Shown piece by piece: positions 9,076 to 10,107 of a stretch of 24,913 nt of DNA; the first letter of the stretch is position 1; each line of letters opens with the position of its first letter. Under the pieces are notes generated by a model. It was given only the letters and a program-made list of their open reading frames with translations. It did no database searches and was not told the DNA's origin. The stretch lies in IMG/VR virus record IMGVR_UViG_2537562172_000005; one strand, 5' to 3'. The DNA comes from a virus (taxonomy: Duplodnaviria; Heunggongvirae; Uroviricota; Caudoviricetes). The translations under genes and the position numbers were made by a program.

Positions 9076-10107
9076 ATGTCTATTAATCCTAAACTTAAGC
9101 GTGTCGCGCTACGCTATCCAGCGTTATTCCAAAATGAGTCCCCCTATATGGCAAGAAAATTAATAATATTCGGCAACGGTCTCGGTATGGCTTTAGATCC
9201 TGCTCACTTCTCCTTAGACAGAGCGTTGGAAGAAATTTGGCATCGCCCCAATTTTTTAAAAGATATCCACAAGCAACTTATCGAGCGTTGTCTTCAGCGG
9301 CAAGGTCCACCAGAAGGAGAACATGAGTTGGATACCCTTCACCAGGCTGTCACATATTGTAAAGCTCTTGCTCAAATTGGAGAGGGGAACGTGCATTGGC
9401 TTACTGAAGATGGACTAAACTTCCCCAAAATTACCGCCACTTATATTCACAAAGTTGCAACCAGGTTGCATAATTACGATAAAGGTTTGCCACAAAGATT
9501 CGAAAATGCGCTTGTGGAGTTTGTAAAGAACACACACTCACATATCGCGACATTAAACTATGACAAATTATTATACAATTCATTCATAGATAATGATATA
9601 TTCAACGGGTATGATGGGGTTTTAGTTGATGGGATGCTAAGCCACGGATTTTCCTCTGCAGCGCTCGAACGGAAATACAATCGTAGGTTTGGTTATTATT
9701 TGCACTTGCATGGTTCACCACTATTTATTAATCAGCATGAAAATGTTTTAAAACTTTCACGCTCACAACTTACTCTTGACATAGATGAACCTAGTGAGCA
9801 TATAGTGTTAACTCATATAAAAAGAAAACCGTCAGTTATAGCAGCATCTAATGTTCTTTCTACGTACTGGGATTATTTGCAGTTTGCATTATTTGAATCA
9901 GAAGAAATAATATTGTTTGGTTACTCGGGTCTCGATATTCACCTTAACCTGCTTATTCGACCTTACCTAACCTCTAAGCCTTTAAGAGTAATTGAGTGGA
10001 GCGGTGCTGGTGAACAAAACGCTCGTGAGATATATTGGAAAAACCAGTTGGGACGGGAAGTTAATGTAATTAGGTTGGATAACATCACTGATTTTATTGA
10101 TTGGTAG
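9076..10107 (+). CDS. SIR2-like (SIR2_2/DHS-like NAD-binding fold) protein, candidate NADase defence effector
   Basis: 343-aa ORF in AT-rich DNA; ordered motifs IIFGNGLG, TLNYD, LHLHGS, FGYSGLD matching the SIR2_2 signature; alternative start at 9148. Confidence 0.7.
   Translation: MSINPKLKRVALRYPALFQNESPYMARKLIIFGNGLGMALDPAHFSLDRALEEIWHRPNFLKDIHKQLIERCLQRQGPPEGEHELDTLHQAVTYCKALAQIGEGNVHWLTEDGLNFPKITATYIHKVATRLHNYDKGLPQRFENALVEFVKNTHSHIATLNYDKLLYNSFIDNDIFNGYDGVLVDGMLSHGFSSAALERKYNRRFGYYLHLHGSPLFINQHENVLKLSRSQLTLDIDEPSEHIVLTHIKRKPSVIAASNVLSTYWDYLQFALFESEEIILFGYSGLDIHLNLLIRPYLTSKPLRVIEWSGAGEQNAREIYWKNQLGREVNVIRLDNITDFIDW

Follow-up and report, generated by a model that had tools for sequence, protein, structure and literature searches.

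What does a lone SIR2-like gene do in a Shiga toxin-converting prophage? The gene lies in a 24,913-nucleotide stretch of DNA (the window; IMG/VR record IMGVR_UViG_2537562172_000005, Caudoviricetes) that represents a lambdoid Stx2e-converting prophage located beside ompW in porcine enterotoxigenic/Shiga toxin-producing Escherichia coli (ETEC/STEC), and that is 100% identical to the corresponding region of O141:H4 strain P13-6 and 99.6% identical to that of ETEC4073. A preliminary description of the sequence had proposed that the gene encodes a single-domain protein and is a candidate NAD-depleting anti-phage system. Based on its predicted structure, conserved residues, selection and genomic distribution, we lean, with confidence only slightly above even, toward a specific form of that proposal: the protein may be an autonomous, auto-inhibited, sensor-less NADase that is carried by the prophage as a single-gene moron and guards the lysogen by abortive infection.

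The coding sequence and the four motifs on which its assignment to the SIR2 superfamily was originally based are as follows (residue numbers refer to the 319-residue form):

9148 to 10107, plus strand: likeliest form of the SIR2-like coding sequence, 319 amino acids plus stop codon, identical to PGAP protein WP_000101549.1 ("SIR2 family protein").
9163 to 9186, plus strand: IIFGNGLG, glycine-rich loop after beta-1 (Rossmann NAD-binding motif).
9550 to 9564, plus strand: TLNYD, with invariant N137 and D139, the putative counterparts of catalytic N163 and D165 of PsSIR2.
9700 to 9717, plus strand: LHLHGS, with invariant H186 and H188; H188, in its H-G context, is the putative catalytic histidine (compare PsSIR2 H212).
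9916 to 9936, plus strand: FGYSGLD, conserved G-Y-S-G-x-D loop after a core beta-strand.

All four motifs occur in the order originally given, and an alignment of 36 family members indicated that they are invariant or nearly so (G9, N10, G11, T135 to D139, H186 to S190, G258, Y259, G261 and D263); they are therefore not chance matches. By motif order, spacing and fold, and not by residue-level superposition, N137, D139 and H188 would correspond to the catalytic residues N163, D165 and H212 of PsSIR2 (PMC11472057). The suggested membership in Pfam family SIR2_2 (PF13289) held by a narrow margin, with residues 132 to 278 scoring 26.1-26.3 bits against a cutoff of 24.5, and all 36 aligned relatives matched the same family at E ≤ 0.01. 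NCBIfam returned no match to the protein and PHROGs only a non-significant one, and we regard the sequence evidence for SIR2 membership as real but thin. No SIR2 match emerged when PDB sequences were searched, either with the protein alone or with the profile of its family (one spurious match, to HmuT, had an E value of 0.11), and comparison of folds was therefore needed.

The structure predicted by AlphaFold2 from the family alignment (predicted local distance difference test score [pLDDT] 90.5, predicted TM-score [pTM] 0.89) has a SIR2 Rossmann-type fold that fills the entire 319-residue protein, in agreement with the earlier claim that no sensor domain is fused to it. The best Foldseek matches in the PDB were the SIR2 chains of SIR2-HerA/Nezha (E values of 2e-11 to 1e-8, TM about 0.6). 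CobB (about 1e-5), SPARSA (3e-4) and SIRT2 (from 4e-4 up) were weaker, with CobB and SIRT2 matches ranging from 1e-5 to 1e-2. Judged from the model, the proteins closest in fold are SIR2 effectors of anti-phage systems and not deacetylases; the structure settles the assignment, and the protein is an immune-type ("SIRim") SIR2 domain and nothing more. SIRim proteins as a clade show enrichment in defence neighbourhoods (10.1101/2024.09.18.613514). The model also contains a five-helix insertion, or "small domain", at about residues 20-130 that is among the most conserved parts of the protein.

The gene had been described as a 343-codon open reading frame (ORF) spanning positions 9076 to 10107 of the plus strand. 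That frame is present and intact, but its first 24 codons are probably not part of the protein. The features that bear on the start and on expression are the following:

9076 to 9147, plus strand: in-frame 24-codon extension, likelier a 5' leader than coding.
8708 to 9147, plus strand: AT-rich upstream spacer (35.7% GC), which accompanies the gene in each of the two E. coli alleles.
8754 to 8783, plus strand: sigma-70-like site TTGACA-18-AAAAAT, one example among the sites within the spacer.
10202 to 10221, plus strand: weak terminator-like hairpin 3' of the stop codon (consensus scan: 2 sites against 1.1 expected, not significant alone).

SIR2 homologs from other genera are 319-320 amino acids long; the frame upstream of the homolog closes within 0-10 codons in Serratia, Aeromonas, Vibrio, Bacterioplanes and Saccharospirillum, where a purine-rich, Shine-Dalgarno-like run precedes the homolog ATG; and the 72-nucleotide extension evolves more freely than the gene body between the two E. 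coli alleles (proportion of nonsynonymous differences, pN, 0.19 versus 0.052). Because of these homolog lengths, closed upstream frames and freer evolution, the true start is most likely M25 of the longer frame (nucleotide 9148), as in the PGAP annotation, and we judged initiation at 9076 less likely. A GAG lies 9-10 nucleotides 5' of the ATG at 9148. The extension frame is open only in the Escherichia alleles and, without an ATG, in Klebsiella: 24 open codons precede the Klebsiella pneumoniae homolog (locus L008, 5929-6000), and the peptide that they would encode resembles the E. coli extension (RIALHYPYLFEKE versus RVALRYPALFQNE). Conservation of a leader is one possible explanation of this likeness, and non-ATG initiation of an extended protein in some Enterobacteriaceae is another. 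The AT-richness noted earlier was evident in both the coding sequence (39.0% GC) and the 440-bp spacer upstream of it, compared with 47-49% GC in the rest of the window. The spacer, which is conserved within Escherichia only, presumably provides the SIR2 gene with a moron-like promoter of its own.

A profile search of 1.84 billion representative proteins (E ≤ 1e-3) yielded a family of 359 representatives, nearly all of which are 310-370 amino acids long and match the whole profile; the family is compact and consistently single-domain. Members from Escherichia, Serratia, Pantoea, Citrobacter, Klebsiella, Vibrio, Aeromonas, Pseudoalteromonas, Chromohalobacter and other genera are 57-82% identical. 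Purifying selection on the family is strong, with ratios of nonsynonymous to synonymous substitution rates (dN/dS) of 0.137 between the two E. coli alleles, 0.098 between E. coli and Serratia, and 0.038 between Aeromonas and Vibrio. Among 5426 complete E. coli genomes the gene is rare and patchy: 46 carry it, always on the chromosome, as one of two alleles (at least 99% and about 89% identical). Since copies are intact in all 46 carriers and dN/dS is 0.04-0.14, we excluded a pseudogene or decaying remnant. In every host the GC content of the gene is 37-46%, even where the flanks are 58-62% GC (Aeromonas, Klebsiella and Chromohalobacter), which indicates a gene that keeps moving horizontally.

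To place the gene among its neighbours, contexts were sampled by exact-protein look-ups and from IMG/VR (a contig scan with the single protein gave only three loci). In about 12 independent contexts across many genera, no conserved neighbour or partner of the SIR2 gene was present. The homolog in V. parahaemolyticus lies in an integron-like array with an IntI-type integrase, ccdAB, Mrr and many tiny ORFs, and that of V. aestuarianus adjoins an integrase and a PDC-S66-like gene. In Serratia, the neighbours are a Fic gene and a gene for an AAA_16/PDC-M36A-like protein. The Chromohalobacter canadensis homolog sits directly downstream of a Nuc_deoxyrib_tr/QueC/OGG operon, and genes for HipA, NYN, Fic/RhuM and AbiEi nearby mark the region as a defence island. 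Twenty-one (pro)phage contigs in IMG/VR carry the family, and members at 41-52% identity occupy different positions in unrelated phages: in L039 the gene is flanked by lysis/methyltransferase genes and the integrase, in L034 it follows the terminase and portal genes, and in L040 it lies near HNH and endolysin genes. The gene thus behaves as a single-gene moron, mobile cargo that occurs in prophages, in an integron-like array and in defence islands.

Two of these loci have features of their own. The Chromohalobacter operon (L016, 3860-6853) consists of four genes, encoding a 128-residue protein, a 446-residue Nuc_deoxyrib_tr protein, QueC and an OGG-like protein, and is similar to the accessory set of QueC and OGG found in some CBASS-type systems. 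In the Vibrio protein clusters P0043 and P0044 (V. parahaemolyticus/V. aestuarianus; L012, 2990-4615), the SIR2 part is fused to an N-terminal extension of about 190-220 residues. The two extensions are homologous to one another (30% identity, E value 8e-12, versus about 70% in the SIR2 part), had no Pfam match and had no copy in the other loci. A search of a word-indexed large protein database with residues 1-222 of P0044 gave no homolog, a weak negative result since P0044 itself was not returned. This fast-evolving extension may be a lineage-specific sensor domain.

Within the window, the order of prophage genes is:

First part: integrase, excisionase, exonuclease, dicB, dicA/dicC, ydaT, replication gene, DUF977 gene, SIR2.
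After SIR2: IS481, hokD, DUF968, rusA, Q, methyltransferase, tRNAs, stx2eAB.

The gene accordingly lies where it had been placed, after the replication and DUF977 genes and before hokD, DUF968, RusA and Q. The comparison drawn earlier with the position of relBE in Qin also proved apt: the Qin prophage of KSC1031 carries the second SIR2 allele there, upstream of relBE. Both E. coli alleles occupy one slot in Qin-like or ompW lambdoid prophages, with the DUF977 gene on the 5' side and hokD or relBE on the 3' side. Carriers include the Stx2e-converting prophages of porcine edema-disease/ETEC strains and also O55:H7 prophages. We considered DUF977 and hokD as partners and rejected both, since they are prophage backbone and toxin-antitoxin genes that occur without SIR2 and are absent beside the homologs of other genera. 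The ompW prophages of enterohemorrhagic E. coli (EHEC) O26 (L041, 3916-6267, PPompW_132418) lack a SIR2 gene in this slot: their replication genes and hok/gef are separated by two hypothetical genes and the gene for the Paa/AdfO adhesin. The slot accepts cargo in general and is a hot spot of variable content (Paa/AdfO, relBE and hok, for example).

The preliminary description had been unable to map the gene to a named system, and we reached the same result, as the defining architecture of each named SIR2 system is missing. The protein most resembles the SIR2 effectors of SIR2-HerA, Kongming and Thoeris. The SIR2 subunit of SIR2-HerA/Nezha (PDB 8w9l, 8j4u, 8sub and 8wld) has the closest fold, yet it is only 13-18% identical, is 40-80 residues longer, and was not matched at the sequence level even with the family profile. 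A HerA-like gene was not adjacent to the SIR2 gene in the window (where the neighbours are the DUF977 gene, IS481 and hokD) or in the approximately 12 other contexts, a result that concerns adjacent genes, as a distal HerA was not searched for. KomC of Kongming (PDB 8zsf and 9v0g) is also a structural relative; its operon has three genes, the other two encoding KomA and KomB, and KomC itself responds to dITP as activator (PMC13454610), whereas the window protein has no KomA or KomB neighbours. Thoeris ThsA has a SLOG or Macro domain fused to SIR2 and acts with the TIR-domain protein ThsB; the window protein has no such fusion and no TIR gene nearby. DSR1 and DSR2, which Garb et al. are said to have described in 2022, reportedly combine SIR2 with a large C-terminal sensor region for a total of about 1000 residues or more. 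The window protein (319 residues) and its family (310-370) have no such C-terminal domain. The STAND NTPase fusion of Avs5 and the SIR2-APAZ protein of SPARSA, which works with a short prokaryotic Argonaute (pAgo), likewise involve domains or neighbours that the window protein does not have.

Human FAM118A/B ("SIRal", PDB 9r0p) is a stand-alone SIR2-like protein, but it belongs to a vertebrate-specific clade, is activated by A/B pairing, and is a distant relative at 17% identity. The Sir2 homologue of Vassallo et al. 2022 is probably that of PD-T7-2, which has two genes and a HerA-like partner. The nearest PADLOC model is PDC-S21, a predicted single-gene system of similar size. It matched the window protein with E values of 7e-6 to 1.6e-5 (22-24 bits, profile positions about 17-213 of 336) and 32 of the 36 relatives with a best E value of 3.5e-9. 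This match, although it reflects weak homology, is partial and far below member-level scores, and the window protein is related to PDC-S21 but probably not a member of it. We found no mention of PDC-S21 in the literature. The PADLOC Aga_SIR2 and generic SIR2 models gave weak, domain-level matches. PADLOC matches as a whole, that to PDC-S21 included, had E values of about 1e-5 with the window protein and of 1e-9 at best across the family.

How, then, might a protein of this kind protect a lysogen? We infer a mechanism in which the SIR2 protein would be made in the lysogen and kept inactive. The likely brake would be the conserved helical small domain (about residues 20-130), occluding the NAD pocket as it does in the SIR2 protein of SIR2-HerA: PsSIR2 alone has no NADase activity, its small helical domain blocks the pocket, and deletion of that domain activates the enzyme (PMC11472057). 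Homo-oligomeric assembly may add to the inhibition. Infection by a second phage would then lift the inhibition, the N137/D139/H188 site would hydrolyse NAD+ or ADP-ribosylate a target, and the infected cell would be arrested, blocking phage propagation. A shift in oligomeric state recurs as the means of activation among immune SIR2s and in the stand-alone FAM118 proteins, and the single-domain FAM118 sirtuins act through filaments (PMC12700824). Given how conserved the family is, a ligand or an assembly interface that is itself conserved seems a better fit than a fast-evolving sensor of phage proteins.

The single domain, the absence of a partner, the immune-type fold and the spread as mobile cargo agree with the anti-phage proposal, and several points weigh against it. 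Identity of 57-82% across genera is unusually high for an immune protein, and would be expected as much of an enzyme whose cellular ligand or target is conserved as of a phage sensor. In Aeromonas veronii, Klebsiella pneumoniae and a metagenomic gammaproteobacterium, the gene stands alone among housekeeping genes. Because the replication-hok slot also holds virulence and toxin-antitoxin cargo, the position of the gene in E. coli, part of the original argument, is weak evidence on function. The protein has neither a sensor domain nor a partner, and its closest structural relative needs HerA for activity. No PADLOC model matched at member strength, and we found no publication on the family in the literature.

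A bolder version of the autonomous-NADase reading, which we put forward tentatively and consider less than probable, is that the protein represents the smallest autonomous SIR2 immune system, in which sensing, auto-inhibition and NAD+ destruction reside in one SIR2 domain. The helical small domain, unusual in its degree of conservation, would itself be the sensor, and the cue would be conserved and non-proteinaceous (a nucleotide, a nucleic-acid end or a metabolic signal), in contrast to a phage protein that varies. Such a cue would explain both the missing partner and the 57-82% identity across distant genera.

Of the explanations that compete with a lysogen-protecting NADase, the one that survives best, though we think it unlikely, is a non-immune NAD-dependent protein modifier (a deacylase or ADP-ribosyltransferase), for example a secreted host-directed effector like C. 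jejuni SliP, a DUF4917 protein reported to be a secreted histone deacetylase (PMC10421069). An effector of this type would suit the Stx prophage of a pathogen; the slot holds the Paa/AdfO adhesin in EHEC O26, and the very high conservation would suit a conserved target. SliP and the window protein share a Pfam superfamily (a likeness that does not come from direct sequence comparison), and DUF4917 (PF16263) was matched weakly by 26 of the 36 relatives, with a best E value of 7e-8; the window protein, however, had no DUF4917 match in Pfam, even at E ≤ 1. Deacetylase sirtuins were clearly weaker structural matches than immune SIR2s, and the window protein has only two cysteines and therefore lacks the zinc ribbon, or four-cysteine zinc module, of deacetylase sirtuins. 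Moreover, the family is not pathogen-specific but widespread in marine and environmental bacteria (Pseudoalteromonas, Bacterioplanes, Chromohalobacter and Saccharospirillum), and no secretion signal or linkage to a secretion system was seen.

Slightly less likely again is that the protein is an orphan effector, inactive alone, whose required partner is the product of a gene elsewhere (a HerA-like ATPase, or a signal producer such as ThsB or KomA/B). Its lack of a sensor domain would be accounted for in this way, and its closest folds are those of HerA-activated SIR2 subunits and of KomC, which is activated via KomB and dITP. That no partner is adjacent in about 12 contexts across many genera argues otherwise, as does the integron-cassette-like array, which favours autonomy, and solo transfer into diverse hosts at dN/dS of 0.04-0.14 makes a specific partner acting in trans unlikely.

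We consider it improbable that the gene is a selfish addiction module, in which a NAD-depleting toxin, restrained by an unrecognised antitoxin or by auto-inhibition, stabilises the element that carries it and defence is incidental at most. SIR2 NADases such as ThsA and DSR are intrinsically toxic when active, and toxin-antitoxin cargo surrounds the gene (hokD/sok in the window, relBE in Qin and ccdAB beside the Vibrio copy), but no conserved small ORF or RNA accompanies it across genera, its upstream spacer is not conserved beyond Escherichia, and many copies are at stable chromosomal sites where there is no element to stabilise. A benefit to the carrier phage during its own lytic growth (for example by rewiring host NAD metabolism or countering host defences) is very improbable despite the orientation of the gene with the early-right (cro to Q) operon, in which it could be read from pR, because tblastn found no homolog in 50,697 deposited phage genomes and a BFVD fold search gave no significant match, which argues against a regular phage function. 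Many copies also lie outside any phage, and the AT-rich spacer of 440 bp points to separate expression.

The gene is already annotated generically by PGAP, and both the domain and its likely chemistry are familiar; the new part is the stand-alone, partner-less SIRim architecture. To our knowledge, every validated SIR2 immune system pairs its NADase with a separate sensor (HerA, ThsB and SLOG, a STAND NTPase, pAgo, the DSR C-terminal domain or KomA/B). If the autonomous-NADase reading is correct, a conserved and widely transferred protein consisting only of SIR2 shows how little a triggerable NADase needs, and offers a simple model of SIR2 auto-inhibition and activation that is relevant to the stand-alone human FAM118 sirtuins. 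How a SIR2 NADase is gated without a sensor is a clean question that so minimal an architecture makes directly testable. Because the gene sits in Stx2e-converting and O55:H7 prophages, it could also influence superinfection, the outcome of phage therapy and the spread of Stx phages.

Apart from the SIR2 gene, the window contains an IS481-family element, absent from the preliminary description, between SIR2 and hokD (10472-11566, with the transposase ORF at 10436-11509 on the minus strand). The element is inserted in the hokD/sok locus (window positions 10310-11736), with a 6-bp target duplication, AGGAGA, that is the hokD Shine-Dalgarno sequence. It parts a full-length Rfam sok/leader match (10310-10477, 109 bits) from an intact hokD coding sequence (11581-11736), and hokD is therefore probably uncoupled from its own promoter and from mok/sok control. 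The O55:H7 and O111 prophages do not have the IS481 element.

Farther downstream, a DNA methyltransferase ORF (15449-16507) is followed by tRNA genes at 16548-16620 and 16725-16798, which are directly upstream of stx2eA (16886-17851) and stx2eB (17864-18127). In strain K_EC180, PGAP places a "tRNA-OTHER" between the two tRNA genes. The Stx2e prophage of K_EC180 (L001) is shortened relative to window positions 18000-24913, with a terminase pseudogene, Rha/ash and a partial ompW, whereas in the window, P13-6 and ETEC4073 the prophage runs on into terminase, portal and tail genes. Among porcine strains, the Stx2e prophage circulates in both intact and decayed versions.

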